DNA of 40,081 bases, from positions 1 through 40,081 of the forward strand of contig CAZOTP010000002.1 in NCBI GenBank assembly GCA_964582655.1. Direction: 5' to 3'. The position numbers and the translations under genes were made by a program. The notes beneath the pieces are model-generated. The model searched no databases and was not told where the DNA came from. It saw only the letters and a list, made by a program, of their open reading frames with translations. Source of the DNA: an uncultured Pirellulales bacterium. GTDB taxonomy: Bacteria > Planctomycetota > Phycisphaerae > Sedimentisphaerales > SM23-30. The number at the start of each line of letters is the position of its first letter. Position 1 is the first letter of the stretch. Shown one piece after another: positions 9,101 to 27,573 of this stretch.

Positions 9101-10161
9101 GCGTACACCTTTTCGATTTCTTCGAGAACCGCATCGGCAATCTCGACCGTCTTCTGTCTGCCTTTCTGCTGGGGCACTCCAACCCCCCGGGCGAGGGCGC
9201 TTTGGACCGCGGAACGGATCGCATCTGCGGCCGTGTTTTCTCCCAGCCATTCCAGCATCATCGCGGCGCTGAGAATCGCGGCGATGGGATTGGCAATTCC
9301 TTTTCCCGCGATATCCGGCGCGCTGCCATGGACCGGTTCGAACATCGAAGGAAAGACCCGGCCCGGATTCAGATTGGCGCTGGGGGCCAGCCCGATTCCC
9401 CCCGTGATGGCGCCGGCGAGGTCCGACAAAATATCCCCGAATAAATTCGACGCAACAACCACGTCAAACCCGGCGGGCTGAAGGGTAAAATTCATCGCCG
9501 CCGCATCCATGTGCTGCCGGTCCGCCTGCACCTGGGGATAATCCTTTCGTACCGACTCCAGCACATCATCCCAGAGCGTCATGCCATACCGCAGGGCGTT
9601 GGATTTGGTAATCAAAGTCAGATGGCCCCTTCGCTTCTTCGCCTGTTCGAACCCGAACCGCACGATTCGCTCGATGCCTTTTCGGGTGTGAATGGAAGTT
9701 TCGACGGCTACTTCCTCCGGCGAACCGGTCTTGAACCGCCCGCCGCAGGCGACGTATTCGCCCTCGGAATTTTCCCGCAGAATCAGGATATCCACCGGAC
9801 CGGGGCTGGCCAGCACCGACGCCACACCGTCATACAAACGGCAGGGACGATAACAGATGTACTGATCGAATCGCTGGCGAATTTGAACCAGCGGCGCCAG
9901 GGTGATATGATCGGGCAGACGGGACGGATATCCCAGCGCTCCCAGAAAAATCGCATCAAATTTCCGAAGCTGATCCAAAAAATCATCCGGCACAACCGCG
10001 CCGTGCCGATCGTAATAATCGCATCCCCATGGAACCGTTTCGCCGTCCAGACGAAACCCGCCGTCTTTTTTCTGAATTCGTTCCAGCACGCGAATCGCCT
10101 CTCGAATCACATCCACCCCGATGCCGTCCCCTGGATATATCGCGATTCGGTGCGTCTTCAT
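9097..10161 (-). CDS. Tartrate dehydrogenase/D-malate dehydrogenase (decarboxylating)/3-isopropylmalate dehydrogenase family
   Basis: MKTHRIAIYPGDGIGVDVIREAIRVLE... and NLFGDILSD are hallmarks of the isocitrate/isopropylmalate dehydrogenase family. About 354 aa from ATG 10159-10161, which overlaps the upstream stop (ATGA). Confidence 0.8.
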   Translation of the reverse strand: MKTHRIAIYPGDGIGVDVIREAIRVLERIQKKDGGFRLDGETVPWGCDYYDRHGAVVPDDFLDQLRKFDAIFLGALGYPSRLPDHITLAPLVQIRQRFDQYICYRPCRLYDGVASVLASPGPVDILILRENSEGEYVACGGRFKTGSPEEVAVETSIHTRKGIERIVRFGFEQAKKRRGHLTLITKSNALRYGMTLWDDVLESVRKDYPQVQADRQHMDAAAMNFTLQPAGFDVVVASNLFGDILSDLAGAITGGIGLAPSANLNPGRVFPSMFEPVHGSAPDIAGKGIANPIAAILSAAMMLEWLGENTAADAIRSAVQSALARGVGVPQQKGRQKTVEIADAVLEEIEKVYA

Positions 10162-10955
10162 GGCCGGTCCCCCTTCGCACGGACACTTTGCAGGACCTGC
10201 GGCCAGACGCGGCTCAAATCCATCACATCCCCGGCAAAAAACGCCAAGTCGCACCCCGCTTCCACCGCCGATTCCAACAGTTTGCCCGGCCGAACCAGTA
10301 TGCCGGCGTGTTTGCCCATCCGTTTTGCCGTGCGAATGCAATCCAGCGCCGTTTTTATTAAATCCAGATTGTCAAATTCCCCCGTGCATCCCAGCGCTGC
10401 GGAGAGATCGCCCGGCCCGATAAAAATCCCCGACAATCCTTCCACCGCGCAGATGGCCTCGACATTCGCCGCCGCCTGGCGAGTCTCTATCTGCGCGAAT
10501 ACATGGGTTCGGTCATTGGCCTTCGAAAACGCCGTTGTACAAGGCTCCAGCCCGAATTCCACGCCGCGGCTGCGGTTATTGAACCCCCGCTGTCCTAGAG
10601 GGGGAAATTTTCCCCATTCCACCATCTGCCTGGCCTGCTGGGCGGTATTGACCATCGGGACCACGACGATACCCGCCCCCACTTCCAGCGAACGGAGAAT
10701 ATATGTCCGCTGAAGCTCCGATACGCGGATCGTGGGGACCGCCCCGCCGGCCTGCGCCGCCAGGCAGAGCGACTCCGCCTCCCGAAACGTAGTCGAACAA
10801 TGTTCCATGTCGATCCATACCGTATCAAATCCCACGCGCCCCGCCAGTTCTGCCAGCATGGTCGAACCTGAATATAAAATCGCACCCCGCACCAGTCGCG
10901 GCTGCCCCTCTTGATTCACAAACAGATCGTTCTTCATGTTCATTTGATCCTGCAT
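10158..10955 (-). CDS. HpcH/HpaI-family class II (metal-dependent) 2-keto-3-deoxy-acid aldolase
   Basis: GFDTVWIDMEHC...VVPMVNTAQQARQMVEWGKFPPLGQRG is typical of HpcH/HpaI, YfaU and GarL-type aldolases. The start is chosen at ATG 10953-10955, which overlaps the GntR stop (TAATG) and gives 265 aa, the normal family size. The longer ORF in the track runs into the regulator gene. Confidence 0.8.
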   Translation of the reverse strand: MQDQMNMKNDLFVNQEGQPRLVRGAILYSGSTMLAELAGRVGFDTVWIDMEHCSTTFREAESLCLAAQAGGAVPTIRVSELQRTYILRSLEVGAGIVVVPMVNTAQQARQMVEWGKFPPLGQRGFNNRSRGVEFGLEPCTTAFSKANDRTHVFAQIETRQAAANVEAICAVEGLSGIFIGPGDLSAALGCTGEFDNLDLIKTALDCIRTAKRMGKHAGILVRPGKLLESAVEAGCDLAFFAGDVMDLSRVWPQVLQSVRAKGDRP

Positions 10956-14184: not shown

Positions 14185-15135
14185 TTACCTTTTCTGTTTT
14201 TGCTGGAGGACTTCTTCAACAGCGGTGATAATGGCTTCGGGTGAAAGACCGTAATGGCGCTGCAGCTCTGCATAGCTTCCGGACTGGCCAAACTGATCGG
14301 GAATAGCGATTATTCGCATTGGAATCGGGCAGGTTTCCGCCAAAAAACGGCTGATATAGGAGCCCATTCCGCCATATACGCTATGTTCTTCGCAGGTGAC
14401 CATACAGCGGCATTCCCGGGCAGCGGATAATATCACGTTTCCATCGAGAGGTTTGATCGTGTGAAGATCGATGAGGCGGACGGAGATTCCTTTTTGGGTC
14501 AACTGTTCCGCTGCTTGGCGAACTCTGTCAAAGATATGGCCGGTGGAGACCAGGGCCACATCGTTTCCGGGCTGTCGGATAAGGGCTTTTCCGATTTGGA
14601 AGGGAAGCGGATAATCCAGGCGGTTTACTTCAGCGCGGGATAAGCGGAGAAAAACCGGTCCGTCGTGTTCGAGGGCGGCCTCCAGCGCCAGTTCGGTTTC
14701 CGTCGCGTCCGCCGGACAGATCACGGTCATATTCGGCATGGAGAGGAAGAAGGATAGATCTTCGACGGATTGGTGGCTGCCGCCATCGGCGAAATCGCTC
14801 AGTCCCGCATAGCCGCCGGCGAAAATCACGGGGAGGCGGCTGTAGGCGATCTGGCTTCGGACCTGATCGGATGCGCGGGTGGCCAGCAGAAAAGCGAAGG
14901 CAGAGACCAGCGGTCTCATCCCAGCGGCGGCGAGACCGGCAGCGACCGAGACCATGTTGGCTTCCGCGATGCCGCAGTTGAGGAAGCGGTCGGGAAATGC
15001 CGTCTGGAACAGCCTGGTTTGCGTCGAAGAGGAGGTGTCGGCATCGAGCACGACTAAATCTTTGTGCTTTTGGCCCATTCGAACCAGATGTTCGCCAAAG
15101 ACGCGGCGCATGGGAGATGGCTGTTCGGTCGTCAT
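14185..15135 (-). CDS. Transketolase, C-terminal (Pyr plus C-terminal domain) subunit
   Basis: MTTEQPSPMRRVFGEHLV...FLNCGIAEANMVSVAAGLA is typical of the B subunit of split transketolases. ATG 15133-15135 overlaps the upstream stop (ATGA). Confidence 0.9.
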   Translation of the reverse strand: MTTEQPSPMRRVFGEHLVRMGQKHKDLVVLDADTSSSTQTRLFQTAFPDRFLNCGIAEANMVSVAAGLAAAGMRPLVSAFAFLLATRASDQVRSQIAYSRLPVIFAGGYAGLSDFADGGSHQSVEDLSFFLSMPNMTVICPADATETELALEAALEHDGPVFLRLSRAEVNRLDYPLPFQIGKALIRQPGNDVALVSTGHIFDRVRQAAEQLTQKGISVRLIDLHTIKPLDGNVILSAARECRCMVTCEEHSVYGGMGSYISRFLAETCPIPMRIIAIPDQFGQSGSYAELQRHYGLSPEAIITAVEEVLQQKQKR

Positions 15136-15959
15136 GGAGTTGGCTCCAGGTCTTTCATCGCGGTCTGATATTCTTTCTCGGAAAGGGGCGCTCCGTGCCA
15201 GACGTGATTGCCTTCCATGAAGGAGACGCCTTTTCCTTTTACGGTGCGGGCGAGAACGGCGACAGGACCTTTTGCCTGCATCGCCTCCTGCAGGGCCTGA
15301 TACACGGACCGGCAATCATGACCGTCGCAGGAAAGAGCGGCCCAGCCAAAGGCGTGGAATTTATCCGCCAGATTTCCCAGAGGTATGATATCGTTGGTGG
15401 CGCCATCGAGCTGGATGCTGTTCCAGTCCACAATGACAACCAGATTCGGGAGGTTGAGTTTTGCCGCGAGCATGGCGGCTTCCCAGTTTTGACCTTCGTC
15501 GAGTTCGCCATCGCCCGTCAGGACGAAGACCCGCCATGGTTCCCGGCGATGTCTTGCGGCCCAGGCCATGCCGATGCCGTTGGAGATTCCCATTCCCAGC
15601 GAGCCGGTGGATATTTCGACGCCGGGTACCTTCCGCATATCGGGATGGCCCTGGAGGGGGCTGCCGAATTGACGCAGGGTCTGAAGCTGATGGGCGGGGA
15701 AAAACCCTCTCTTAGCCAGGATGGCATACAGGCTCGGCGCCGCGTGTCCCTTGGATAAGACCAAGCGGTCGCGCTGGGGCCAGTCGGGGTGATAGGGGCG
15801 GAGATTCAAAATTGCCCGGTACAAGACGACGAGAATTTCCGCACAGGAGAGCGACCCGCCGCAATGCCCGGATCCGGCGCGATAGGCCATCTCAATTACG
15901 GTGCGGCGCAGCTCCTGCGCCTCCCGCCGCCAAAGCTCAAAATCATTCTGATCCGGCAT
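15132..15959 (-). CDS. Transketolase, N-terminal (ThDP/PP-domain) subunit
   Basis: GHCGGSLSCAEILVVLY and the ThDP-Mg motif GDGELDEGQNWEA are present. The start is ATG 15957-15959, 2 nt after the upstream stop. Confidence 0.9.
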   Translation of the reverse strand: MPDQNDFELWRREAQELRRTVIEMAYRAGSGHCGGSLSCAEILVVLYRAILNLRPYHPDWPQRDRLVLSKGHAAPSLYAILAKRGFFPAHQLQTLRQFGSPLQGHPDMRKVPGVEISTGSLGMGISNGIGMAWAARHRREPWRVFVLTGDGELDEGQNWEAAMLAAKLNLPNLVVIVDWNSIQLDGATNDIIPLGNLADKFHAFGWAALSCDGHDCRSVYQALQEAMQAKGPVAVLARTVKGKGVSFMEGNHVWHGAPLSEKEYQTAMKDLEPTP

Positions 15960-15961
15960 CG

Positions 15962-17035
15962 TCAATACTCCTTCCTGACAATCAGGCACAATCCTTCCGG
16001 CCGGAGGCGATTCAGGAGCATCTGAATCTGGTGTTCCGTTTTCAGGTTCATGATAATGACGGCTTTGCCGGCCCGCTGAATCCGCTGAAAGGGTTCGACC
16101 ATATCCTCCAGAGACGGGCCTGTCGGATCCAAAGCCCATTCAATCGCCGCCAGTTCCCGGATTTCCAATAGAGCGTCCAGGTGCTGAACGGCGGAGGAGT
16201 GAAAATGAATCGTAACCGTATCAAAAGCACAGGCGATTTTGCGGTAAGAGGGAACCAAGAGGTTCTGAAAATGTGCCGGGGACAGGATATTGGCGATATC
16301 GGCCTGAGTGACGATGTTTCGTCCGGGTCCCCAGATCCGATATCGATTGATCGAACCGCCATGAAAGGGCGGCAGGACCTCAAATTGAGCCTGGTATAAT
16401 TGAATGACGCAATCCGTCAGCCAGTCGGACATGGCTTATACCACCGCCCCCTTAGCATACAGCCCCAGCCAGACTCTTTCCGCGCCGATCAGGGCTTCGA
16501 GGCAATCCGCCGGTCCTCGCAGGAGAGTTTCGCTGATGAGATATTCCCCCGCCGAGGCATCCACGTTTTTTCGTGTCGCTTCGGCGAGCTTGTCCCGCCA
16601 GAGAGCGTTCAGACCGGCCATCAGTTGATCCAGGTTTTCCCGAACCTTTTCACCCGGCTTGGTCCAGACGGTTTGTGCCCGGCTGGAGAGATACACATTC
16701 GCACCGGTATAACCCTCGCTCCAGGGAATGGGTTCCAGGGGCATTTTCGCGGGGAACAGATCATCGCCCGGCAGAACCGCCGGACGAACTTGCGTATCGG
16801 CCGTGATGACGCGTTCGGTGATATCGGATGCGGCAAAAGGGCCTTCATGCTGAATCCGTAAATTCTGGAGCGGAAACAGGCGGCTCATCGGAGCGCAGCC
16901 GATGAGAGGAGTGCTGCCGGATTTGCGCCGCCAGAACGACGCATGATGAGCAAGAAGGTTTTCCTGTCGCGATGGATCCAGAGAAGTCAGCCAACTCGAT
17001 TCCGGAAAGACAGGGATGGGTCTGTTTGAAATCAT
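15962..17035 (-). pseudogene. URO-D-fold (uroporphyrinogen decarboxylase/MtaA-like) protein interrupted by a single in-frame TAA (16436-16438); alternatively a naturally split two-piece gene
   Basis: ORFs 16436..17035 (199 aa) and 15962..16432 (156 aa) are in the same frame. They are separated only by TAA-GCC-ATG (...KGAVV*AMSDWLTD...). Together they give about 356 aa, the normal URO-D-family length. The break falls in what looks like one continuous domain. Confidence 0.5.
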
Positions 17036-17045
17036 AAATTCCTCA

Positions 17046-18728
17046 TCAGCCGTTTGCCAGCCAGCCGGCCAGCCAGGTTACGCTTCCGATCAGCAGAAGC
17101 ACCACGAGGATCAGCAGGACAAACCCATACCATGCGTGTTTTCGGGTTTCGCGAAAATCGATCTTTCGAATGGCGGCGTCATAATCAAAGTCCTGATCGG
17201 CTTCGGGGGGCAACTCATATGTGCCGGTTCCCGGAATCTCACGGAATCCGACTTTATGCAGGATTTCCTCCTGACCGATGGGCGTTTTCAGGAGCAGATA
17301 AAACCGGTCCAGCCGATGTTTCGGTTCGGGGGGCGTGAGCAAACTGACGATAATTCCGGCCGCAATCCCCGCCGCGATATACAGCGTGACGGTTTTCGGC
17401 AACCCGGGATCACCCTGCCATTCCATGTGGAACTGAGCGAACACCACCGCGCCGACGGCGGCAAAAAACGCGGCGAACATGCCGTACCGGTTGGACCGCC
17501 GCCACAGAATCGCGAAGAAAAACGGAATCCCCATCAGGGGAATTGTCTGGAACAGGAATCGGATGGCTTTGGTGGTATCGTCGAAGAGATAGGAACAGGA
17601 TATGGACGCAACGGCAAAGACTACGGAGGACAAGCGGCTGACCAGAAGATACCGTTTTTCGGAGACATCCGGGCGGATGAATTTTTTATAGATGTTATTG
17701 GAGAACACGCCGGCAAAACAGAGCATCTGGACAGCGCAGTTATCCATCATGGACGCCATCACGCACGCCAGCATGAGCCCCACACATCCCGCCGGCAGCA
17801 GATCCTGGGAGATGGTCCCGAAAATATGGTCCGGTTTCAGTGTTCCCGCTCCATAGAGCGCCATCGCCATCACGCCGGTCAGGGCCCAGGGGATGGTGAT
17901 GAGCCGTTTGAGGAGCAGGCCTCCGACAAAACCGATCCGGCTGTCCATTTCGGTTTTTGCCGAAGCGGTATTGGACATGATATGGGGCTGGGTAACCATG
18001 CTGATCAGCGACGCCATGGTCACCATGACAATCCAGTACAGCGTCATATCCTGCGAGAGTACCAGCCGGAAGGTTTCCTGGGGATTTTCCAGTCCCGCCT
18101 GAAAGCCGTTCAGCCCGCCGATCCGATGCCAGAAAAAGGGGATAATGAGAATCGACATGACAATGGTGAGAATGCCCTGGAGAAAATCGTTCCACACGGC
18201 GGCGATCAGTCCTCCGGCGGCGCCGTAAAAGAAAGAAATCGATCCCAGAATCACAAGGATATATTGCCATGAAATCGTGTGGTCCATCAGGGCCTCCAGG
18301 AGCCGGCTGGAGGCATAGAGCATGATGCTGGTCGAGACCAGACTGTAGAACATGGAAAAGAGGGAATACAGCGCCATGAATTCCGTGCCGAACCTGCGCT
18401 CGAAGAAATCGGCGGTGGTGAGCACTCGCGCCCGCCGATAAATCGGCGCCAGGAGCCAATAGACGGGCAGGGTAAAGACCATGACCCACTGGTACCAGAT
18501 TCCGGCGAATCCCACTTTATACGACTGGGCGGCAACCCCCACCGCGTTATCCGCGTGGGTCCCTGCGCCAAAGGAAAACAGGATCATCATCGCCTTGCCG
18601 AAGCGGCGGCCCCCCATGAGAAAATCCTCGCGGTTGCGGATAAAATACGTGGCCGCCACGCCGATTCCCGCAATCACGAGGAAATACAGCAAAATCACAA
18701 GGCCATCAAGAATCGTTAATCCGAACAT
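17046..18728 (-). CDS. Sodium:solute symporter (SSS) family transporter with a C-terminal extension
   Basis: 560 aa. The N-terminus MFGLTILDGLVILLYFLVIAGIGVAATYF... is SSS-like. After the core comes a roughly 70-aa hydrophilic segment and one extra C-terminal TM helix. Confidence 0.85.
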   Translation of the reverse strand: MFGLTILDGLVILLYFLVIAGIGVAATYFIRNREDFLMGGRRFGKAMMILFSFGAGTHADNAVGVAAQSYKVGFAGIWYQWVMVFTLPVYWLLAPIYRRARVLTTADFFERRFGTEFMALYSLFSMFYSLVSTSIMLYASSRLLEALMDHTISWQYILVILGSISFFYGAAGGLIAAVWNDFLQGILTIVMSILIIPFFWHRIGGLNGFQAGLENPQETFRLVLSQDMTLYWIVMVTMASLISMVTQPHIMSNTASAKTEMDSRIGFVGGLLLKRLITIPWALTGVMAMALYGAGTLKPDHIFGTISQDLLPAGCVGLMLACVMASMMDNCAVQMLCFAGVFSNNIYKKFIRPDVSEKRYLLVSRLSSVVFAVASISCSYLFDDTTKAIRFLFQTIPLMGIPFFFAILWRRSNRYGMFAAFFAAVGAVVFAQFHMEWQGDPGLPKTVTLYIAAGIAAGIIVSLLTPPEPKHRLDRFYLLLKTPIGQEEILHKVGFREIPGTGTYELPPEADQDFDYDAAIRKIDFRETRKHAWYGFVLLILVVLLLIGSVTWLAGWLANG

Positions 18729-18764
18729 AGTTTGTTCTCGATAAACGAAGGCGGAATTGGAATC

Positions 18765-19487
18765 TTATTCCTGTTTGTTCCGCATGGTTTTCAGTTCCTG
18801 GGCTAATTCCTCGGGCGTCAGTTTCTGGATATGCTGACGGATCGCCTTTTCCGCCTCCTCGGGATTGCGGTTTTTGAGAGCGTCCAAAATGGGCTGGTGA
18901 CTTCGGCCGAAGACCGATTCGATGGGCCGCAGCGCGTGAAACAGAAGGTCCATCAATTCACTTTGCTCTTTGTAGCAGTAATTCTGCTGCATAATCGGTT
19001 CAAACATGTCCGCCAGCAGCGTATTGCCGCAGCGGCTTACGATATAACGATGAAAAACGACATCGGCGTCCTTGTATCGAGAACGGTCCTCCTCTTGATC
19101 CGCCAGGATCAGTTCCTGATGGATATCCGCCAGTTCGGACAATTCCTGATCCCGGATGCGGGATGCCAGAAGACGAACGGCTTCCACTTCCAGCGCCCGC
19201 CGGACTTCGAAAAGCTGACTCAAATCATTCTGACTGGAATAATCCTTGATGTAAACGCCGGAAGGTCTGTTGCGATGCACGGCCCAGCCTTTCTGCACGA
19301 GTTTTTCCAGGGCTTCCCGCACCGGCGCCTGACTGATGCGCAACTGCCTGGCCAGATCCCGCTGCACCAGTCGCATCCCGGAGCAAAATTTCCCGTCCCG
19401 GATATTGCCAACCACATAGTCATAAACCTGATCGGTCAGTCTGCATTCCATAACCGATTCATCCGAAAGGCGAATCGAACTATTCAT
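18765..19487 (-). CDS. GntR-family transcriptional regulator, FadR/FCD subfamily (second copy)
   Basis: 240 aa with a wHTH (RDLARQLRISQAPVREALEKLVQKGW) and an FCD-like C-terminal domain. It is the first gene of the operon. Confidence 0.9.
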   Translation of the reverse strand: MNSSIRLSDESVMECRLTDQVYDYVVGNIRDGKFCSGMRLVQRDLARQLRISQAPVREALEKLVQKGWAVHRNRPSGVYIKDYSSQNDLSQLFEVRRALEVEAVRLLASRIRDQELSELADIHQELILADQEEDRSRYKDADVVFHRYIVSRCGNTLLADMFEPIMQQNYCYKEQSELMDLLFHALRPIESVFGRSHQPILDALKNRNPEEAEKAIRQHIQKLTPEELAQELKTMRNKQE

Positions 19488-19552
19488 AAATCTCTTATTT
19501 ACAAAGGTTAGTGATTTTTAATTCATGAAACATATTACTATGATCTATCTTC

Positions 19553-19591
19553 TGATCGATCATATGATAGACCAATAATTTTAACTGTCAA
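19553..19591 (-). promoter_or_regulatory. Sigma70-like promoter TTGACA-N16-TATCAT plus the 10-bp palindrome TGATCGATCA at the predicted start site
   Basis: On the minus strand the sequence reads TTGACAgttaaaattattggtcTATCATaTGATCGATCAgaagatag. The -35 is at 19586-19591, the -10 at 19564-19569 and the palindrome at 19553-19562. The leader to the GntR ATG is about 70 nt. Confidence 0.4.
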
Positions 19592-19646
19592 TTGGATATT
19601 TTATTTTTGCCCGATGAAGGGGAAAGCGTTCGGCAAGGCGGGACTA

Positions 19647-20987
19647 TCAAGAATTCGATATCGAGGGAATTCCGTAGGGACCGTCGGGCAGAAGCAGAAG
19701 AGAAGCGCGGGGATTTTCCCGAAGGAGCTTGTCGAGGGCAAGTTGGGTGATTCGCTGCGTGAAGGAGCTGTCGGATTCGCCGGAATTTGGGGAGTGGAGG
19801 GTGGCGGCGTTGGTTTCGGGAATGGTTTTATCGCGCAGACGAGCGGCGCAGGTCATGAGATTTTTTGCGGTGCCTAGTTTTTGGAAGACTTTGGCCCACA
19901 TCTGCACCTGCCACTGTTCGGGAACGAAGGTCCAGCCGGGATCGCGGATCGCGCGGCGGAATTCCTGAGGAGTCATCTGCTGAAGGAGCGGGAGGATTTG
20001 TTTGTATCCCGCCCCACCGATGGGGTCCGGGTCGGTCAGATCGGCGGTGAGAAGGATATGGCCGTTTGGGCAGGCCGCACGACAGGCTTCGTAAGCGGCT
20101 TTGGCGCACTGGTAGTGGTTCACGCCCACATCGCCGGCCTGGGTGAGGACGATGTCGAACTCATGAGGAATTGGGATTCGCACAAAATCACGGATTTGAT
20201 CGATGGCGGCGCGGTGGGCCTGTTCCAGCGAACCGGCGAAGATGCCGGCGAGTTTTTTTTCAGAGTTAATGGTGACATTGACGGTAAAATCGACGCCGGC
20301 CATTTTTGCGATAGCGAGGGATTCTTCATGGCAGGGATTGCCTTCCAAGACAAGCGTGTCGGCGCGGGGGTGGTCGAGGATTTCGGCGGAATGGAAACCC
20401 CATGTGACGGACTGGCCGCAGATGCCGGGGCAGAGGGCTTTTCGGCCTCCGGAGTAGCCGGCCATGAAATGCGGCTCGACCAGGCTGGTGAGGATTTTCA
20501 GATCGGCCTGGCCATAAAATCGATTGATCGCAACCGTCGGATTGCGGGAGGTGCTTCCCAGGGTTATCAGCATGTCGGGATCGTCGGCGATGTGGTTGAG
20601 AATCTCGATGCCGGGGCGGAATGCCGAATCACCGAGCATGCGTCGAAGCTCCTCCTGGGACATGGCGCGATGCGTGCCGCAGGCGATAAGGATGCGGATT
20701 TGAGCGATGCCGCTTTGCCGGAGAATATCCAGGAGTGGAGCAAGAATGCCGTCCGGTTCTTTGTAGGGGACGGGCCGGGTGTTGTCGGAGACCACAATGA
20801 CGGCGGAACAACGTCCGGCGGCGAGCGCGGACAAGGGGGGAGAATCGACGGGATGGTTCAAGGCTTGATGCAATGTTTCCGCGGGATATTCCAGTGGGGG
20901 CATGGGGGACAATCGCAGAATCTGCGCCGAATCGGGGATTTGAAGAGTGAATTCTGATTTGCCATAAGGCCAGGAAATTCTTTTCAT
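19647..20987 (-). CDS. larA: LarA-family nickel-pincer-nucleotide (NPN)-dependent 2-hydroxyacid racemase/epimerase homolog
   Basis: 446 aa from ATG 20985-20987 (AAGGAA lies 5 nt upstream; the track start at 21005 is TTG). It carries VSDNTRP, CGTHR (His106) and PHFMAGYSGGRK...FH, giving His173, Lys183 and His199. This reproduces the H-x9-K-x15-H spacing of the catalytic His, the NPN-tethering Lys and the Ni-ligand His of L. plantarum LarA (His108/His174/Lys184/His200). Confidence 0.85.
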   Translation of the reverse strand: MKRISWPYGKSEFTLQIPDSAQILRLSPMPPLEYPAETLHQALNHPVDSPPLSALAAGRCSAVIVVSDNTRPVPYKEPDGILAPLLDILRQSGIAQIRILIACGTHRAMSQEELRRMLGDSAFRPGIEILNHIADDPDMLITLGSTSRNPTVAINRFYGQADLKILTSLVEPHFMAGYSGGRKALCPGICGQSVTWGFHSAEILDHPRADTLVLEGNPCHEESLAIAKMAGVDFTVNVTINSEKKLAGIFAGSLEQAHRAAIDQIRDFVRIPIPHEFDIVLTQAGDVGVNHYQCAKAAYEACRAACPNGHILLTADLTDPDPIGGAGYKQILPLLQQMTPQEFRRAIRDPGWTFVPEQWQVQMWAKVFQKLGTAKNLMTCAARLRDKTIPETNAATLHSPNSGESDSSFTQRITQLALDKLLRENPRASLLLLPDGPYGIPSISNS

Positions 20988-21009
20988 ACCGATTCCTTCA
21001 AGCAAGCGG

Positions 21010-22566
21010 TCAGGAGAACCAAGTTTGCAGTTGGCTGTAGAGGGACCAGACCCCAGTGATTAAAAATCCGCCGAAGGAAAACCAGAGCAGCACATCCCAG
21101 ATTCGGGCCGGCGTGAGCGGCTGGAGGGTTTTTCGATAGCGGAAATACAAGGCCGCAATTCCCAGCATCGGGAGCATGATCGCCTGGGCGACGCCGCTGG
21201 CGAGGACCATGGCGACGGGTGCCTGAACGAAAATATACGCCACGACAGCAACGAGGGGCCAGACGGCGCTGATCCAGCGGGTCCATCGCTGCCGGGTGCG
21301 CTCCGATTTGTCATGGAGGCCGAACAATCCCAGGCCGTCGGCGACCATTCGGGAATTGCCCGCCGCAGCGACAAAAAACGTGGAATAGAGCACGGCGAAG
21401 GCGCCGAAAAGAAAGACGCCGTCGGACCATTTCCCGAATACGGGAACGTACATCTCTTTGAGGGTACGAATCATATCCGTCTGCTGGGGATTCAGACGGG
21501 CGCGGCCCAGCACGGCGGCGCCGAGCCAATAAAACGCGACGGTGACAAAGGTATAAACGGCCATGGAGGCAAAGGCGTCGATGTGCAGGATTCGCAGCCA
21601 GCCTTTGGCTCGCGCCAGCCAGTCAGGGCTATCCTGGCGCGGGCCGGTGAAGCGGGCGTATCCTTTTTCCAGGCACCAGTAGGGATACATAATCAATTCC
21701 GCAGCTCCCACGCCGATGATGCCGAAGGCACCGAAGGCGGTGGCGATGGGATTGATGGAACTGTCCGGAAGCCTCGGCGGAAGCTGAAACCGCAATCCCT
21801 GAACGAGTTCTGAAGGTTGAATCGCCCATTCGGGTTTGGTTTGCAGGAGCAGCACGGTAAGAACGGTTACGACCGTGAAACCTGCCACGAGAATGGTAGA
21901 GACCGTTTGAATGAGGGTGTAGCGGCCGATATAGAGCAACACCGAAGTGGCGGCGGCGATGAGAACCGCCCAGAGGTAGGGATCGCGAGGTTCCTGGGAA
22001 GAACCATTTCGGACGGCGAGATCGGCGATTTTTTTCTGCCAGACGGGAATGTCCGAGGAATCGGGCCGTTGGGTCCGGAGCAAAGCAAGCTGGACTTTCG
22101 CCTGAATCAGATCGTTTTGCCTGTGGTTGTATTCCTTCCCTTCCTGCGTCAGGGGCCAAGTCATGGCCAAGGTCTGCCCCACCCCGCCGACAATTCCCCC
22201 CTGCTGAGTAATCACCAGCACCGTCATTGCGGCCCAGTACCACAGCAGCCAATTCACTTTCCATCGCGGCCCCGGCAGAGTATTGAGCGCCTCCAGCGGG
22301 GTCTGCGACCAGATAAGGGTATGCCGCCCAAATTCCACCTGCACAAAAACTTTAATGACGCAGCCCAGGACCATGAGCCAGAGCAGCCAGAAACCCGCTT
22401 CGGCTCCCACCTTGGTGGTGGCGATTAATTCCCCGGAGCCAACAATGGAACCGGCGATAATCATGCCTGGACCGAGGCTGAGAAGGATTTGCCCCAGCGA
22501 GCGGGGCGGCGGATGAGGCGACGACTTGTCCATAACCAACGTTCTCCGCGGTCCGGGCGAACACAT
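21010..22566 (-). CDS. Nramp-fold (MntH-like) transporter lacking the canonical DPGN and MPH metal-site motifs
   Basis: LGPGMIIAGSIVGSGELIATTKVGAEAGFWLLW aligns with MntH TM1 ([32 protein letters not shown]), but DPGN is replaced by GSGE. The TM6 region reads GVGAAELIMYPYW instead of GATIMPHVIYLHS. The start may be ATG 22566 or ATG 22533. Confidence 0.7.
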   Translation of the reverse strand: MCSPGPRRTLVMDKSSPHPPPRSLGQILLSLGPGMIIAGSIVGSGELIATTKVGAEAGFWLLWLMVLGCVIKVFVQVEFGRHTLIWSQTPLEALNTLPGPRWKVNWLLWYWAAMTVLVITQQGGIVGGVGQTLAMTWPLTQEGKEYNHRQNDLIQAKVQLALLRTQRPDSSDIPVWQKKIADLAVRNGSSQEPRDPYLWAVLIAAATSVLLYIGRYTLIQTVSTILVAGFTVVTVLTVLLLQTKPEWAIQPSELVQGLRFQLPPRLPDSSINPIATAFGAFGIIGVGAAELIMYPYWCLEKGYARFTGPRQDSPDWLARAKGWLRILHIDAFASMAVYTFVTVAFYWLGAAVLGRARLNPQQTDMIRTLKEMYVPVFGKWSDGVFLFGAFAVLYSTFFVAAAGNSRMVADGLGLFGLHDKSERTRQRWTRWISAVWPLVAVVAYIFVQAPVAMVLASGVAQAIMLPMLGIAALYFRYRKTLQPLTPARIWDVLLWFSFGGFLITGVWSLYSQLQTWFS

Positions 22567-22647
22567 TCAGAATATCTCTCTCTATATAACCCGAAAGCTC
22601 TCCCCTTGACAAGCTTTTCCCGAGGCCCGCAAACAGGGGAATAGGAT

Positions 22648-22677
22648 TTGACAGTTCCTGTCTGTATAAGGTAGCAT
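22648..22677 (+). promoter_or_regulatory. Candidate promoter TTGACA-N18-TAGCAT for the plus-strand operon
   Basis: Read directly from the sequence. It lies about 125 nt upstream of ATG 22802. The same -10 hexamer (TAGCAT) is found at the tRNA promoter. Confidence 0.35.
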
Positions 22678-22801
22678 AAGCAGTCAGGTTATCGGGATGA
22701 GCCTTCCCGCGGCGGAGGGGGGCCGGAATCTGCGTTGCAGAGGTGCTCCGGCCCTGCCATAGGGATGGGCGATCGCTGAGCCGGAACATTGGACAAACGC
22801 C

Positions 22802-24538
22802 ATGAACGCGACGGAGCGGACAATTCGAAACCGAATTAATCAGGAGAGGGAGCGGCAGCGGAATACGGCGGCGGAGACTCTGCTGGATTGGATTGAAGAA
22901 GGGCAGATCGTGCGGGCCCGGGGGAATCTGATGTTTCACACCGAACCGGAGAAGCTGGACGGGAAACTTCAAAAGCTTCTGCATCGTCTTTTGGAGAATC
23001 CGGAGCGTCTTTCCCGGAATCATCAGCAGCATCTGCTGCGGTTTTTGACCGACCTTGCGGCGGATCTGAAGAGCTTCGTCCCTCACTGGGTATTGAGTCC
23101 GCCTTTGACGGAGGACAATCTTCACCGGATGTTCCTGGCAGTGACTGAAGTGCTGAAACACCTTCTGCCCGTGTGCCGCGAGGCGGCGGCGGAAGTGACC
23201 AGGCAGATTCGGCGGAACACCCTCGCCCGCTTGCAGGCGGAAGGGATCGAGGATGCCTTTCGCGCGGCGGCTTTGACGGAAGAGCTTCTGGGCCATTCTC
23301 TTCTGGATTACATCCGCAATCTGACCGGGGAAATTCAACGGAGCAATTTTCTGAAGGCCTCCCTGGCCCGTAAAAACGGGATCTGCGCCACGGAGCTGGG
23401 AAACGATTACGCCGTTTTCCTGCCGTATGTTCTTCGGCTGGGCGGTTCGTTTGTGACGACCAATCCGGTGCTGATCCCGCTGGCGTGGGAGATCGAGCCG
23501 GAATACTGGAATCCCAGGGTGGATGAGCTGATCCGTTCCGGCTACCGCCGCGAGGAACTGCTGGACATTCAGAAAGATCCGCAAAAACGGGAGACCGCCG
23601 TTGTCGAAATCAATTCGCTGGTGACCATGGCAGTGGTGGAAGACAACTGCCGCCTTCTGCGGGATCTCTTTCTGGTCACCGAAGGCCGGGAAGGATATGT
23701 CAGCCTCCAGGTCAGTCCGAAGAACCACGATCAAACGGACCGGATGGTTTCGGAGGTGATGTCGCTGTATGGGCATCTGGAGCGGCGGCTGGGAGGCGTT
23801 CCCAACGCGGTCTTCAAGCTGCCGGCGACGGCGGCGGGACTGGCGGCGGCGGAGCAGATTACCGCAAAAGGAATCGGGGTTACGATTACCGTTCAGTTCG
23901 GAGTGTTTCAGGCAGCCGAGTTTGCGAAGGTTTTGCAGCGGGGCCATGCCCTGGTATGTTATCTGGCGCTGATGAACGGCCGCATGGCGTTCCCGGTGCG
24001 GGATGAAATGAAGGAAAAACAGGTTTCAGGCGGCGTGGAGGCGGCGCGCTGGGCGGGTGTCGAAGTTGCGCGAAAAGCGTTCCGGAATTTGTACGATGCT
24101 CCCGCACAGGGGGGGCTGGGGATCGATCGCGAAAAAGTGAAACTTCTGATCGCTTCGCTGCGGATTTACGATGACTGGCTGCCCGACATTTCAGAGCTGT
24201 GGGGCTGCCCAGTGATTACGGTGTTTCCCAATGTCCGGCGGGCCTATGATTCGCACCCTCGCGATTTTGACGGGCAGGCGGTGCGGGAGGTTACGCCGGC
24301 GGAGGAGATAAACACCCTGCTGGAAAGCGAAATTTTTCGACAGGCATGGTGGGCACCCGGAGATTCGCCGCGTTCCCGACCGCATCGGCCGCTGAGCCTG
24401 GAACCAAACGATTGTGACGCTGTTTTGCAATGGCCTCCTGTCGCCCAGACGCTTGGGCAGTTTATTTCGCTGTATGACAAAATGGGTGAGATGGTCAAGG
24501 CCCGAGTCCAGGCGCTGGCTGTCGTCGGAAAGGAGTGA
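22802..24538 (+). CDS. Oversized transaldolase-fold (class I aldolase) protein, atypical active site
   Basis: 578 aa. The core carries SFVTTNP (N221), GYVSLQVS (Q303), VFKLPATAAG (K339) and GVTITVQFG (T363). These align with E. coli TalB TTNP(N35), GRISTEVD(E96), KLAST(K132) and LTLLFS(T156). The Q303-K339 spacing (36) and K339-T363 spacing (24) are identical to TalB. There is an additional roughly 190-aa helical N-terminal extension and a roughly 130-aa C-terminal extension. Confidence 0.7.
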   Translation: MNATERTIRNRINQERERQRNTAAETLLDWIEEGQIVRARGNLMFHTEPEKLDGKLQKLLHRLLENPERLSRNHQQHLLRFLTDLAADLKSFVPHWVLSPPLTEDNLHRMFLAVTEVLKHLLPVCREAAAEVTRQIRRNTLARLQAEGIEDAFRAAALTEELLGHSLLDYIRNLTGEIQRSNFLKASLARKNGICATELGNDYAVFLPYVLRLGGSFVTTNPVLIPLAWEIEPEYWNPRVDELIRSGYRREELLDIQKDPQKRETAVVEINSLVTMAVVEDNCRLLRDLFLVTEGREGYVSLQVSPKNHDQTDRMVSEVMSLYGHLERRLGGVPNAVFKLPATAAGLAAAEQITAKGIGVTITVQFGVFQAAEFAKVLQRGHALVCYLALMNGRMAFPVRDEMKEKQVSGGVEAARWAGVEVARKAFRNLYDAPAQGGLGIDREKVKLLIASLRIYDDWLPDISELWGCPVITVFPNVRRAYDSHPRDFDGQAVREVTPAEEINTLLESEIFRQAWWAPGDSPRSRPHRPLSLEPNDCDAVLQWPPVAQTLGQFISLYDKMGEMVKARVQALAVVGKE

Positions 24539-24540
24539 AC

Positions 24541-25812
24541 ATGTCGGAGTTTGAAACCGCACAACGTCTTTTGAAACAATTCAAAGGGGAAACCTACTGT
24601 TTTGGGAGCGGCGTGTTGTCGAAAGCGGGAGCCATCGCGAAGGCCCTGGGATCGAAGGCGATTCTCATTTACGCGGATTTTGCCGGCGCGGAAGCGTATC
24701 GGAAAACTATTCAACACTCCCTGCAGCAGGCGGGAGTCGAGCTGAAAGCGTCCCTCCCCGGGGCGCGGCCCAACGCCCCCCGCGAGGATGTGGTTCGGAT
24801 TCTGGGCGATTTGAATGCTCACCACCCGGAAGTTGTCATCAGCCTGGGAGGCGGCAGCACGATTGACGCGGTGAAAGCGGCCACGGTACTGCACGCACTG
24901 GGAGGCGATATCGAAGCATATTTCGGCGTGGGAAAAGTTACGGAGGCTCTACAAGCCGCGGGAAAAACCCTCCTGCCCCATATCGCGATTCAAACGGCCG
25001 CCAGCTCCGCGGCCCATCTGACGAAGTACTCGAATATCACCGATCTGGCGACGGGGCAGAAGAAGCTCATTGTCGATGATGCGATTGTTCCGGCGCGGCC
25101 TGTTTTTGATTACCAGGTCACGCGGAACACGCCGCCTGAGTTGACGGCGGACGGCGCGCTGGACGGCATCGCGCACTGCGTGGAGGTTTTCTACGGAGCG
25201 GTCGGCAAGCCGTATTACTCCCAGATGGAAGAAATCACGTCGGCGGCGCTGAGTCTGGTATTGAACCATCTTCCCCGGGTGATGCAGAATCCCCGCGATG
25301 AGACGAGCCGCGAGGCGCTGTGCCTGGCGACCGATCTGGGGGGATACGCAATCATGCTGGGCGGCACCAACGGCGGACATCTGACCAGTTTTTCTCTGGT
25401 GGATATCTTGTCCCACGGGCGGGCCTGCGCCATTATGAATCCGTATTACACGGTCTTTTTCGCCCCGGCGATCGAGAAACCGCTGCGGGTGATCGGAGAG
25501 GCGTATCGCAAGGCGGGGTATCTGAAACAGGATCCGGAGAAATTGACCGGCCGAGAGCTGGGCACGGCAGTCGCCGAAGGGATGTTCGCGTTTGCCCGGA
25601 ACATCGGATTTCCCACGCGGCTTTCCGAGGTGAAAGGCTTTACGGAGGAGCATATCCGGCGGGCGCTGACGGCGGCGAAAAATCCGCAGTTGAAGATGAA
25701 ACTGGAAAACATGCCGGTGCCTCTGTCGGCGGAGATGATTGACGGATATATGAAACCGGTCCTGGAAGGGGCACGGGACGGGAATCTGGCGATGATTCGA
25801 AATGTTTCCTGA
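24541..25812 (+). CDS. Iron-containing (group III) alcohol dehydrogenase family oxidoreductase
   Basis: Contains the GGGSTIDAVKAA motif and has the family size. ATG 24541 lies 5 nt after AAGGAG. The track start at 24535 is a GTG overlapping the upstream stop. Confidence 0.85.
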   Translation: MSEFETAQRLLKQFKGETYCFGSGVLSKAGAIAKALGSKAILIYADFAGAEAYRKTIQHSLQQAGVELKASLPGARPNAPREDVVRILGDLNAHHPEVVISLGGGSTIDAVKAATVLHALGGDIEAYFGVGKVTEALQAAGKTLLPHIAIQTAASSAAHLTKYSNITDLATGQKKLIVDDAIVPARPVFDYQVTRNTPPELTADGALDGIAHCVEVFYGAVGKPYYSQMEEITSAALSLVLNHLPRVMQNPRDETSREALCLATDLGGYAIMLGGTNGGHLTSFSLVDILSHGRACAIMNPYYTVFFAPAIEKPLRVIGEAYRKAGYLKQDPEKLTGRELGTAVAEGMFAFARNIGFPTRLSEVKGFTEEHIRRALTAAKNPQLKMKLENMPVPLSAEMIDGYMKPVLEGARDGNLAMIRNVS

Positions 25813-25824: not shown

Positions 25825-27573
25825 ATGACAGCGAAGACATTTGGCCAATTGCGAATCGATCCGGCGAAAAATCCGGCGGTGCTGGATACGGCAACGTGGG
25901 AGGAAGCGGCGGTGCGGGACAGAATCCAGGCGGCGGGGCCGGAATGGGGTAATCTGCTGGCGGATAGTCTTGCCGGCGGAAGGGATTGCCCCCCGCATTC
26001 CGATATTGCGGTGTACAGCGGTTCGGCAGGCCGGCAGGGAAGCAGCGATTTTGTCATGCTGGGCTTTTCCGATTCCCAGTATGCGTTCGCGGAGGCGGCG
26101 GGCCAGCGAGCTTCGGGGCTGTTTTCCAGTCCTCTGGCAACGCTCTCGCTGACGGGCGGCAGGCAACTGCTTGTGTATCCGGCGACGGCAGCGAATGCAG
26201 ATTGCTATGTGCGCAGCATCCAGCCGGACAAGGGGCCCCGGGCATTGGGAAGCGAGCCTCGAATCGGAATCGGGACGCGGATGTCCACATCGGTATGGCC
26301 GGCGATTTATCCGGCGATGCAGAAATACCGGTTCGCGGCAAACGCGATTCAGAATTCCATGCGGGAGCTGAACTGCCTGAACAATCTTCTGGCGGGAAAC
26401 CCGTCGGCGATGAATTACCTGTTCAGTTTCGGGGCCATCGAGGAGGGGCACACCGGCAGCACCTTCGAAGGGCTTTGGCTCTCCGGCGTGATCGAAGCGT
26501 TGAAATCCGACACGAAACCCCGGTACGGCGCGGATGCCGACCATATTCAGGTGAAGCGCGGGACGGCGGGACTGGAACGGGCGCAGAACGTCATTCAGGC
26601 GGCGCGATATTATACCTTTTACACAATGGATGTTTCCGATATCCTGAATTATCAGGCGATGCTGCCAACCGCTCCGCCGCCGAAAACGGATTATCCGGCA
26701 GACTGCATTCCCGATGCCGCGATGCGCCGCGAAATCATCCGGTATCACACCGGGCAGGGAGGCATCGCCGGAATTTCCTATGCGCCCGGGGAAGCGCTTC
26801 TTTCGAAACTCATCGGCAAATACTGGCATGCGCTGAACGCGATGGAGCGGCTGTCGGAGTATCTGGATAAGCTGAAACAGGGGATTCCGTACGATCTGGA
26901 ATTCAGCATCGACGAGAATCCGCCCGAGGTGAAGACTTGCCAGTGCATCACCGGCGAGGCGGAGCTGATTTTTGTGATACTGGAGAGCCGCCGCCGCCAC
27001 ATTCCCATTACCCATGTGGCGCCGAATTTCGGGATTGAAAAAGGGGTGGACTACCGCTGTCCGGACGGTCTTTCGGGGCTGGAAAAACGGATTGAACGCA
27101 TGCAGCGAATCGCCCTGGAGTCGGGGCTGATGCTTGATTTCCATTCCGGCGATGATTTGTCCAGCCAGACCCGGAAAGTGATCGGACGGGCGACGAGGGG
27201 GCATAACCATTTCAAAATCTCACCCATGCTGCAGGCGCTGTTTGCCGATGTCCTGTATGAAGTGCAACCGGACGCCTTTTGCTCCTGGTGGCAGGCGACG
27301 CGGCGCTATGTGGAGCAGAAGGCCCGCGACGGCTCCGAGTTTGCCACAGAATGCCTGCGTGAAACGGAAGGCACAGGCCATGCCCCCTCTCCGCAGGACC
27401 GGCTGTTTCATTACTACCATTTCGCGGCGGTGGGGATTCGCGACGCCCAGGGACAGTTCCTGAATCGCGAATTGTTTTATACATTATCGCCGGCATTTTA
27501 TGATCGGTATCGCCAGGCGGCGGAAAACCTGCTGGGCGAGGTAGCGGAAGATGTGCTTTCTCCAAACCGATAG
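25825..27573 (+). CDS. UxaE-like (tagaturonate/fructuronate epimerase family) TIM-barrel protein, tentative
   Basis: 582 aa. RIGIGTRMS..., ANAIQNSMREL... and YGADADHIQVKRG resemble the conserved blocks I recall for the UxaE family. This is not verified by any search. Confidence 0.45.
   Translation: MTAKTFGQLRIDPAKNPAVLDTATWEEAAVRDRIQAAGPEWGNLLADSLAGGRDCPPHSDIAVYSGSAGRQGSSDFVMLGFSDSQYAFAEAAGQRASGLFSSPLATLSLTGGRQLLVYPATAANADCYVRSIQPDKGPRALGSEPRIGIGTRMSTSVWPAIYPAMQKYRFAANAIQNSMRELNCLNNLLAGNPSAMNYLFSFGAIEEGHTGSTFEGLWLSGVIEALKSDTKPRYGADADHIQVKRGTAGLERAQNVIQAARYYTFYTMDVSDILNYQAMLPTAPPPKTDYPADCIPDAAMRREIIRYHTGQGGIAGISYAPGEALLSKLIGKYWHALNAMERLSEYLDKLKQGIPYDLEFSIDENPPEVKTCQCITGEAELIFVILESRRRHIPITHVAPNFGIEKGVDYRCPDGLSGLEKRIERMQRIALESGLMLDFHSGDDLSSQTRKVIGRATRGHNHFKISPMLQALFADVLYEVQPDAFCSWWQATRRYVEQKARDGSEFATECLRETEGTGHAPSPQDRLFHYYHFAAVGIRDAQGQFLNRELFYTLSPAFYDRYRQAAENLLGEVAEDVLSPNR

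Follow-up and report, generated by a model that had tools for sequence, protein, structure and literature searches.

A LarA-family protein with an intact nickel-pincer site, predicted to act on small 2-hydroxyacids, is linked by synteny to acid-sugar operons in an uncultured planctomycete

Introduction

More than half of the superfamily of LarA proteins, nickel-pincer nucleotide (NPN)-dependent racemases and epimerases of 2-hydroxyacids, is without an assigned substrate, and the physiological role of most characterized members is not known (PMC7583248; PMC11770544). Three described types are closest to the gene treated here, which is located on the minus strand at positions 19647-20987 of a 40,081-nucleotide (nt) stretch of DNA (hereafter the window; contig CAZOTP010000002.1 of assembly GCA_964582655.1, contig C2 in our numbering) from an uncultured Pirellulales bacterium. 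The first is the broad-spectrum LarA of the planctomycete Isosphaera pallida (LarA_Ip; LarAH2/SAR, PDB 9EIA and 9EID), whose crystal pocket consists of L174, M175, W356, and Q357, with a flexible Gln that admits C4-C5 substrates, and which prefers lactate and 2-hydroxybutyrate over glycerate and 2,4-dihydroxybutyrate (bioRxiv 10.1101/2024.11.28.625916). The second is LarA1 of L. plantarum (PDB 5HUQ and 6C1W); the published genomic context of true lactate racemases includes larBCE, lactate permease, GlcD-like FAD dehydrogenase, and electron transfer flavoprotein (ETF) genes (Desguin 2020). The third comprises the D-gluconate 2-epimerases called GntE (LarAH19/20/15), together with the group-18 proteins covered by the family model NF052594.

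Four specificity positions, corresponding to residues 175, 176, 358, and 359 of LarA1, have been described for the superfamily (Urdiain-Arraiza et al. 2024, PMC11770544). The signature at these positions is F,F,W,E/Q in lactate racemases (LAR), E,V,A,H in GntE, x,x,H/Q,K in malate racemases (MAR), and Y,F,H/Q,T in hydroxyglutarate racemases (HGR) (PMC11770544). In LarAH43, a preference for glycerate was associated with the Gln at the fourth position, and LarAH10 epimerizes gluconate without a GntE pocket, so that the pocket rule is not absolute (PMC11770544).

In this study, the window gene was found to belong to a sizeable multi-phylum clade of LarA proteins, here called the long-tail clade, which lies below the threshold of every curated subfamily. 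Reproducible genomic partners of the clade are an unassigned subfamily of Fe-dependent alcohol dehydrogenases (Fe-ADH), a split transketolase, and TIM-barrel proteins resembling keto-uronate epimerases, which form a four-to-five-gene module, and synteny connects the window gene to two neighboring kinase-free acid-sugar operons. We propose, with a probability of roughly 0.6, that the encoded protein is a functional NPN racemase or epimerase inverting C2 of a C3-C4 2-hydroxyacid and serving the flanking cleavage pathways.

Results and Discussion

Family, Active Site, and Fold

The open reading frame runs from an ATG at 20987 to the stop codon at 19647 and encodes 446 aa (452 aa from an alternative TTG at 21005), with a Shine-Dalgarno-like GAAGGAA 6-12 nt 5′ of the ATG. 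Based on Pfam, NCBIfam, PDB alignment, AlphaFold, and the phylogenetic tree, the product was annotated as a LarA-family (DUF2088) predicted NPN-dependent 2-hydroxyacid racemase/epimerase of the long-tail clade. The Pfam family Lar_N (PF09861) was matched with 170.6 bits (E = 3.2e-50, cut-off 23.3), covering positions 1-201 of the 204 in the profile. The best PDB matches were the LarA_Ip structures 9EID and 9EIA (E = 1.9e-63); others were L. plantarum LarA (5HUQ, E = 8.3e-51) and the malate racemase Mar2 (4e-40). In the HMMER alignments to 5HUQ/6C1W and 9EID, His106, His173, Lys183, and His199 correspond to His108, His174, Lys184, and His200 of the L. plantarum enzyme, exactly as assigned in the original prediction, which had been made from the DNA letters alone. 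The substrate binders are retained as well, with Arg71 in the place of L. plantarum Arg75 and Tyr292, Gln293, and Lys296 in the places of Tyr294, Gln295, and Lys298; Asp68 is also conserved. All nine residues (D68, R71, H106, H173, K183, H199, Y292, Q293, K296) agree in 200 of 202 aligned homologs and do not vary in alignment A1; K183 and H199 are both found in all 202 homologs.

An AlphaFold2 model calculated from a 74-sequence alignment (pLDDT 95.5, pTM 0.92) displayed the two-domain LarA fold, with Foldseek TMt values of 0.86-0.90 against 9EIA, 9EID, 5HUQ, and 2YJG. For 9EIA/9EID, TMq was 0.85-0.86 and TMt 0.89-0.90 at 33% identity, and for 5HUQ TMq was 0.84. The single-His LarA-like enzymes 9Q2U and 9Q3J matched only weakly, and the window protein keeps both catalytic His residues. 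Hence, the gene encodes a LarA-family enzyme with an intact nickel-pincer site, far beyond what chance would produce, and the corresponding claim of the original prediction stands. Since every catalytic and cofactor residue as well as the LarA fold is present in alignment and model, the enzyme should also be NPN-dependent, as had been proposed.

By analogy to the family, NPN would be tethered as a thioamide to Lys183, with the nickel coordination completed by His199. Arg71, Gln293, and Lys296 would clamp the carboxylate of the substrate and Tyr292 and His106 its 2-hydroxyl group, while His106 and His173 would alternate as acid and base and the hydride would be parked on the cofactor in a proton-coupled hydride transfer.

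Substrate Pocket and a Second LarA Homolog

The four specificity positions of the window LarA are occupied by F174, M175, W359, and Q360. Three of the four fit the LAR signature, the Met at the second position being the one seen in LarA_Ip, and three of the four are identical to the L,M,W,Q of LarA_Ip. The W and Q at the positions of L. plantarum 358 and 359 differ from the H/Q and K of malate racemases, and the Trp that is replaced by Ala in GntE enzymes is kept. Judged by its residues, the pocket is therefore of the small-substrate, lactate/short-chain racemase type.

Among the characterized enzymes, LarA_Ip is the best match in both sequence and structure and has the identical catalytic and cofactor set, and the Gln and Met that widen its substrate range are present in the window protein as well. 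It differs in having 425 aa, the window LarA being about 20 residues longer and diverged after residue 371, in having Leu174 in place of Phe, and in lacking the clade-specific H291, G288, V287, W364, and L212. LarA1 shares the fold, eight matched active-site residues, and Trp358, but its F176 and T359 are M and Q in the window protein and its C-terminal region is different; moreover, the window contains none of larBCE, lactate permease, GlcD-like, or ETF neighbors. GntE and the group-18 proteins have the superfamily, the NPN chemistry, and the acid-sugar setting in common with the window LarA, but not the pocket (E,V,A,H versus F,M,W,Q), and their models score far below cut-off.

No curated NCBIfam LarA subfamily cut-off was reached. 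The best-scoring model, lactate racemase NF033504, gave 285.1 bits against a cut-off of 460, with positions 2-368 of its 422 aligned. The models for malate racemases (NF052593 and NF052595) scored 245.6 bits for the LarAH6 type (cut-off 500) and 229.2 bits for the LarAH5 type (cut-off 462), and LarAH10 reached 207 bits (cut-off 540). LarAH14/15/16, the GntE-type model NF052592, scored 85.2 bits against 740, and the hexonate epimerase model NF052594 19.1 bits against 500.

A second LarA homolog of 425 aa is encoded elsewhere in the genome (C1:32548-33825, +). It matches NF052594, "nickel-dependent putative hexonate epimerase", with 668.9 bits (cut-off 500), carries E,V, as in GntE, at signature positions one and two, which follow the second catalytic His, and is followed 27 nt downstream by a 6-phosphogluconate dehydrogenase-like open reading frame. 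By these sequence features, it is this gene and not the window LarA that is the natural hexonate-epimerase candidate of the genome, which corrects a tempting mis-annotation.

The Long-Tail Clade

In a FastTree phylogeny of 202 LarA homologs, into which no characterized reference LarAH (LarAH42, 43, 51, and others) was included, the window LarA falls into a clade of 164 sequences with a Shimodaira-Hasegawa-like support of 0.99. Members are about 447-470 aa long and have 86-108 residues after the pocket Trp (87 in the window LarA), compared to 63-85 in the other relatives. The crystallized close relatives are short-tail proteins, LarA_Ip having 425 aa with 69 residues after this Trp and LarA1 424 aa. 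The difference is also visible in the NF033504 scores, which are 270-285 bits (270-279 for the relatives of the window LarA within the clade) with alignments reaching about position 370 of 422 for long-tail proteins and 356-425 bits over the full length for short-tail ones.

Several near-invariant residues set the clade apart. His291, directly before Tyr292 and Gln293, is 100% conserved in the clade and mostly Phe outside; Val287 and Gly288 are Tyr and Pro in short-tail relatives; Trp364, which follows Gln360 by one helical turn, is replaced by Leu in proteins of other clades; and Leu212 is a further near-invariant long-tail residue. Residues 287-291 and 364 correspond to DNA positions of about 20115-20129 and 19896-19898 (minus strand), respectively.

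The clade as sampled spans at least 164 sequences from Planctomycetota, Spirochaetota, Bacteroidota, Bacillota, and Verrucomicrobiota. The closest homologs of the window LarA (57-98% identity) are labeled Planctomycetota. Because none of 40 family- and order-level relatives contains a close ortholog, the best hit having 37% identity, the distribution appears patchy, which suggests that it is probably horizontal. Among public sequencing runs, no RNA run was listed, and the DNA runs sharing at least half of the sequence words were two from anaerobic digesters, both of one study, possibly the source sample.

Conserved Gene Neighborhood

The surroundings of 80 LarA loci (43 long-tail and 37 short-tail, one genome per species, at most 52% identical to the window LarA) were compared by tblastn with the window proteins and by all-against-all clustering. 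Recurrence was limited to genes of an Fe-ADH, a split transketolase, and, following LarA, epimerase-like TIM-barrel proteins. In 13 long-tail loci a co-oriented Fe-ADH gene is separated from LarA by 9-73 nt, and a 14th (L016) was recognized by tblastn alone. An Fe-ADH, 44-56% identical to the one of the window, is directly upstream of LarA in about one third of the long-tail loci. These loci come from four phyla, with one each from Planctomycetota (L013) and Bacteroidota (L020), two from separate lineages of Bacillota (L016 and, from Limnochordia, L032), and ten from Spirochaetota; one short-tail locus (L080) has an adjacent Fe-ADH, too. Nine of the Fe-ADH-LarA loci also contain the two subunit genes of a split transketolase, tktN and tktC, eight times immediately upstream of the Fe-ADH; in L013 they are encoded on the opposite strand at a distance of about 5 kb. 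In ten Spirochaete loci, LarA is followed after 3-4 nt by the gene of a 272-aa TIM-barrel protein, for which IolO, 5-keto-L-gluconate epimerase, was the best family match (254 bits, cut-off 300). The gene order in the planctomycete locus L013 is GntR, then, divergently, an E1-type thiamine diphosphate (ThDP) dehydrogenase, a lipoyl protein, Fe-ADH, LarA, UxaE, and UxaC.

The window contains counterparts of all these partners. Its Fe-ADH (24535-25812, +; 425 aa; Pfam Fe-ADH) is a family protein without assigned subfamily that reached no NCBIfam equivalog and has a best PDB match of 112 bits. The N-terminal, ThDP-binding transketolase subunit TktN is encoded at 15132-16139 (-) if the longest open reading frame is taken and matches the split-chain transketolase 6YAK with E = 8.8e-81; since homologs have 273-314 aa, translation probably begins about 40-60 codons later. 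The C-terminal subunit TktC, with the pyrimidine-binding and the C-terminal domain, occupies 14185-15315 (-) as longest open reading frame, identified by Pfam, NCBIfam, and homologs, and its true start is probably near the stop codon of TktN. Directly after the Fe-ADH, the gene of a divergent UxaE-like TIM-barrel protein of 582 aa was identified by Pfam (25825-27573, +). It sits where other genomes have a TIM-barrel keto-uronate epimerase following LarA (genuine UxaE in L013, the IolO-like protein in Spirochaetes).

For LarA-adjacent Fe-ADHs from three phyla, the window Fe-ADH was the sole match in the entire genome (45-56% identity). LarA-linked TktN and TktC are 42-58% identical to the window subunits and 27-36% to the paralogs; for TktN alone, these values are 45-58% and 30-36%, respectively. 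Since the best matches of Fe-ADH and transketolase are thus inside the window, all four module genes are located within 14185-25812, and the partners are no further than 11 kb from LarA. The LarA unit and the Fe-ADH operon are divergently transcribed. Because orthologs of the window Fe-ADH and split transketolase are found directly beside LarA genes of the same clade in other phyla, a functional tie of the window LarA to its flanking operons is supported. The Fe-ADH and transketolase COGs that were searched for (COG1454, COG3958, and COG3959) are not listed in Table S1 (genomic context) of Desguin 2020, and our literature searches found no paper tying LarA to transketolase or Fe-ADH. Group 2 of that study, the one pertinent to LarA_Ip, had no conserved gene neighbors, in contrast to the recurrent Fe-ADH and transketolase genes beside long-tail LarA.

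The pairing of a split transketolase with an Fe-ADH is reminiscent of the sulfo-transketolase module, which consists of the split transketolase SqwGH and the Fe-ADH SqwF. Both are kinase-free sugar-cleavage clusters with a reductase of the Fe-ADH family. To our knowledge, the described sulfo-transketolase pathway does not include a LarA homolog. Furthermore, the window Fe-ADH matches the sulfoacetaldehyde reductase SarD only weakly (104.6 bits, far below the equivalog cut-off of 700), neither a sulfoquinovosidase nor a sulfonate exporter was seen, and the neighbors (UxaE, UxaC, IolO-like, TRAP/TctA transporters) point to carboxylate sugars instead.

The remaining neighbors in the window fit this picture of an acid-sugar setting, which the original prediction had recognized. 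They are a ManD/galactonate-type dehydratase, a GhrB-like D-2-hydroxyacid dehydrogenase, an aldehyde dehydrogenase (ALDH), a tartrate-dehydrogenase-like enzyme, an HpcH aldolase, a DHDPS-like aldolase, a FucI-like isomerase, a transaldolase-fold protein, and a TRAP transporter, in addition to the split transketolase, Fe-ADH, and UxaE-like protein. The tartrate-dehydrogenase-like enzyme (9097-10341, -; Iso_dh family) just reached the NCBIfam tartrate dehydrogenase equivalog (473 bits, cut-off 470.4). Tartrate dehydrogenase converts meso-tartrate to D-glycerate and might supply LarA with a substrate.

Other genes for aldehyde conversion accompany LarA in some long-tail loci. L014, L019, and L030 have an aldo-keto reductase gene as its immediate neighbor, and L045 and L039 have one at a distance of up to about 800 nt. 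In L011, the closest compared locus (51.6% identity), an aldehyde:ferredoxin oxidoreductase gene is found beside LarA, together with an Fe-ADH-like gene. The 582-aa product encoded between the Fe-ADH-like gene and LarA in this locus is that oxidoreductase and is not to be equated with the 582-aa UxaE-like protein of the window.

Cofactor Genes

As stated in the original prediction, none of larB, larC, and larE is present within the window. It had also called for a genome-wide search and had named absence of these genes from the complete genome as a refutation. This search, in an assembly of 3.72 Mb on 549 contigs with a completeness of 90.8%, revealed LarC on a 2-kb contig (C484:1-1161, +; 225.6 bits), its 5′ end cut by the contig edge, and two LarE paralogs above cut-off (C91:5929-6702 and C14:2221-2997, with 334 and 311 bits). 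LarB was not found. With LarC and LarE present and LarB missing only from an incomplete assembly, the original prediction is not refuted on this point.

Proposed Function

For the reading given at the outset, D/L-glycerate and D/L-lactate are the most likely substrates, and a tetronate pair (erythronate/threonate or a 4-deoxy form) is less likely. If weighed by judgement rather than by computation, glycerate would be the foremost single candidate, though short of an even chance, closely followed by lactate, then by some other compound, with C4 acids last. We infer the substrate, the direction, and the physiological role of the reaction. The window LarA may have been recruited to the flanking kinase-free, ThDP- and aldolase-based acid-sugar pathways, where it would not epimerize the intact hexonate but equalize the stereoisomers of a small hydroxyacid left by C-C cleavage and subsequent oxidation or reduction of the aldehyde. 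The small side-chain pocket of Phe174, Met175, Trp359, and Gln360 would accommodate such a compound, as in lactate and short-chain racemases.

Glycerate could arise from glyceraldehyde or tartronate semialdehyde, for which a glycerate kinase, encoded in the genome, the GhrB-like D-2-hydroxyacid dehydrogenase, and the tartrate-dehydrogenase-like enzyme would be at hand. Lactate could be derived from lactaldehyde, with the window ALDH, the HpcH- and DHDPS-type aldolases, and the FucI-like isomerase available. A tetronate might be formed by transketolase cleavage of a keto-uronate and reduction by the Fe-ADH; neither a canonical tetronate kinase (DUF1537) nor a MOFRL glycerate kinase was found in the assembly. 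The D-2-hydroxyacid dehydrogenase, ALDH, and glycerate kinase could take the inverted product further.

A more far-reaching version, which we consider doubtful, is that long-tail LarA performs the stereochemical inversion in an undescribed route for carboxylated sugars that depends on ThDP and needs no kinase. In such a route, a TIM-barrel 3-epimerase would adjust keto-uronates, the split transketolase would cleave them, and the dedicated Fe-ADH would reduce or oxidize the resulting C3/C4 aldehyde-acid; inversion at C2 of glycerate or erythronate/threonate would then allow one downstream stereospecific enzyme to suffice. If true, this would be the first physiological role of an NPN enzyme in central sugar catabolism and possibly include a new reaction, tetronate 2-epimerization.

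Several observations weigh against the assignment to a C3-C4 hydroxyacid of the flanking pathways. Fe-ADH orthologs (E <= 1e-40) were absent from seven of eight genomes that have a long-tail LarA without adjacent Fe-ADH, positive controls being detected, and many long-tail loci have unrelated, uninformative neighbors. Obligate co-occurrence of LarA and Fe-ADH is thereby ruled out. The locus search made use of the pattern EPHFMAGY, by which the FM pocket residues were partly pre-selected among the genome loci. With the clade-specific H291 and W364 and the re-modeled C-terminal region, the pocket rule taken from other clades may mislead, and the long-tail clade, judged from a tree without reference LarAH sequences, appears to be uncharacterized; no organism with a characterized LarAH is among the sources of the long-tail loci. 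Lactate, glycerate, and C4 acids are not separable by computation, and the keto-uronate epimerase neighbors (UxaE, IolO-like) leave a C6 substrate possible. Finally, the sole match of the LarB family model in the genome was PurE on contig C10 (38.8 bits, cut-off 175), and tblastn with the LarB proteins of five family-level relatives against the assembly returned only noise (E >= 0.1) and PurE.

The missing LarB is likely to be an assembly gap, which is the most economical explanation, since 31 of 40 relatives carry LarB and since LarC, two LarE, and two LarA homologs have been retained in the genome. Within the same family LarB was found in 20 of 24 genomes, and the four in which it is also missing belong to one genus; two of these consist of one or two contigs. 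In eight relatives whose larB loci were examined (1.5 kb to each side), larB is not adjacent to larC or larE, and hence the truncated LarC contig alone does not explain the gap. As to the loose association with the Fe-ADH, a facultative link together with the patchy distribution agrees with an enzyme that acts on a common small metabolite and was recruited into different pathways.

Alternative Explanations

The alternative that survives best is an ordinary stand-alone D/L-lactate racemase, used for lactate utilization or D-lactate supply, whose place between sugar-acid operons is incidental. The best-scoring NCBIfam model is indeed the one for lactate racemase, yet its 285 bits remain well below the equivalog cut-off of 460. 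The pocket is nearly that of short-tail relatives in GlcD/ETF lactate-utilization contexts (FMWE/FMWQ), and the nearest characterized enzyme, LarA_Ip, prefers lactate; the window protein, however, belongs to a separate, well-supported clade with its own invariant residues beside the substrate binders. GlcD-like FAD dehydrogenase genes occur in eight of the 37 short-tail loci, four of which also have ETF genes, whereas neither GlcD-like nor ETF genes were found in any of the 43 long-tail loci, and no lactate permease was among the annotated long-tail neighbors. About two thirds of the long-tail loci have neither an Fe-ADH nor a transketolase neighbor, those sampled there being unrelated, and the seven genomes lacking the Fe-ADH altogether are in accordance with an independent racemase. 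In contrast, such a role does not account for the Fe-ADH adjacency in four phyla or for the fact that the only orthologs of the module in the genome lie so close to LarA. Taken together, this makes the alternative unlikely.

Less probable still is an epimerase of C6 sugar acids, acting on gluconate/mannonate, galactonate/talonate, or C5 of a keto-uronate and feeding the ManD/galactonate-type dehydratase or the transketolase. This is close to the original prediction of a sugar-acid 2-epimerase for the flanking operons, of which the link to the operons is borne out by the Fe-ADH/transketolase synteny, while the hexonate substrate finds no backing in the pocket, the GntE models, or the second homolog. 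The gene does lie between acid-sugar operons, but neither a dehydratase nor a sugar kinase is a conserved neighbor in the 43 long-tail loci. Some clade members are followed by UxaE and UxaC (L013) or by the IolO-like TIM barrel, the latter below its cut-off. LarAH10 acts on gluconate without the GntE pocket (PMC11770544), and H291 and W364, which are specific to the clade, might alter the shape of the pocket; nevertheless, the bulky Trp is kept in F,M,W,Q as opposed to the E,V,A,H of GntE, NF052592 and NF052594 give only 85 and 19 bits against 740 and 500, and a dedicated group-18 hexonate-epimerase homolog with E,V (668.9 bits) exists elsewhere in the genome.

It is very improbable that the protein is catalytically silent for want of LarB and hence NPN, as the LarB gap here and in the four genomes of the related genus might suggest, or that it catalyzes a hydride transfer other than C2 inversion, other NPN chemistries being conceivable (Desguin 2020), given the incompleteness of the 549-contig assembly, the presence of LarB in most relatives, the retention of LarC, two LarE, and two LarA homologs, the evident purifying selection on the nine catalytic and cofactor residues, and the presence of both catalytic His, unlike in 9Q2U and 9Q3J.

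Transcription Unit and Further Observations

The gene directly upstream of LarA (21010-22566, -) is separated from it by a gap of 22 nt, encodes a transporter of the Nramp fold (Pfam Nramp 37.8 bits, NCBIfam Nramp_1 106 bits), and is presumably co-transcribed with LarA. Orthologs with 34-55% identity are present in 29 other Planctomycetota genomes, in none of which LarA lies within 1.5 kb of them, and no Nramp-like gene is found beside LarA in the 80 compared loci. As the Nramp-LarA pairing was seen only in the window genome among those examined, nickel supply by this transporter is without comparative support.

The 235-bp divergent intergenic region between this unit and the transaldolase-fold/Fe-ADH operon (22567-22801) contains a sigma-70-like site on the plus strand (22648-22677), which is a consensus match only, such matches being no commoner than expected from shuffled sequence. 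A strong sigma-70-like site, TTGACA-16-TATCAT (11 of 12 matches), is located on the minus strand at 19591-19564, in the intergenic region (19488-19646, -) between the LarA stop codon and the following GntR/FCD gene. The same region holds the perfect palindrome TGATCGATCA at 19553-19562, of which the window has a single exact copy. From this promoter-like site and palindrome 3′ of LarA it follows that LarA is the last gene of its unit. An operator common to the LarA unit and the GntR promoter was rejected, since TGATCGATCA occurs exactly only at 19553 and one-mismatch matches are within the range of chance.

In the Spirochaetota loci L040-L049 and L052 (e.g., L046:2782-13059), the genes are arranged in the order DUF362, GntR, TktN, TktC, Fe-ADH, LarA, and IolO-like TIM barrel; the DUF362 family serves as outgroup to the LarA superfamily. 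Next in these loci come the genes of a ZnuA-like binding protein and of an ABC ATPase with a fused TM1506/DUF1893 domain, an ABC system that might import a metal, perhaps nickel, for the NPN enzyme. The genome of locus L027, a metagenome-assembled genome (MAG) of the Bacillota, encodes four paralogs of the Fe-ADH subfamily with 54-57% identity to that of the window, none of them beside its LarA.

ThDP-related genes other than the split transketolase were also observed beside long-tail LarA, namely that of a dehydrogenase with fused E1 alpha and beta parts, accompanied by a small lipoyl protein (L013:2906-5520), and that of an acetolactate-synthase-like ThDP protein below all equivalog cut-offs (L042:6046-7773). 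Additionally, a URO-D/MtaA-like gene follows 5 nt after a long-tail LarA in a Verrucomicrobiota MAG (L023:1520-2539), its product being 38% identical to the URO-D-like protein encoded at 31271-32590 of the window. This family, which travels with LarA elsewhere, is represented in both operons flanking LarA in the window (31271-32590 and 15962-17035).

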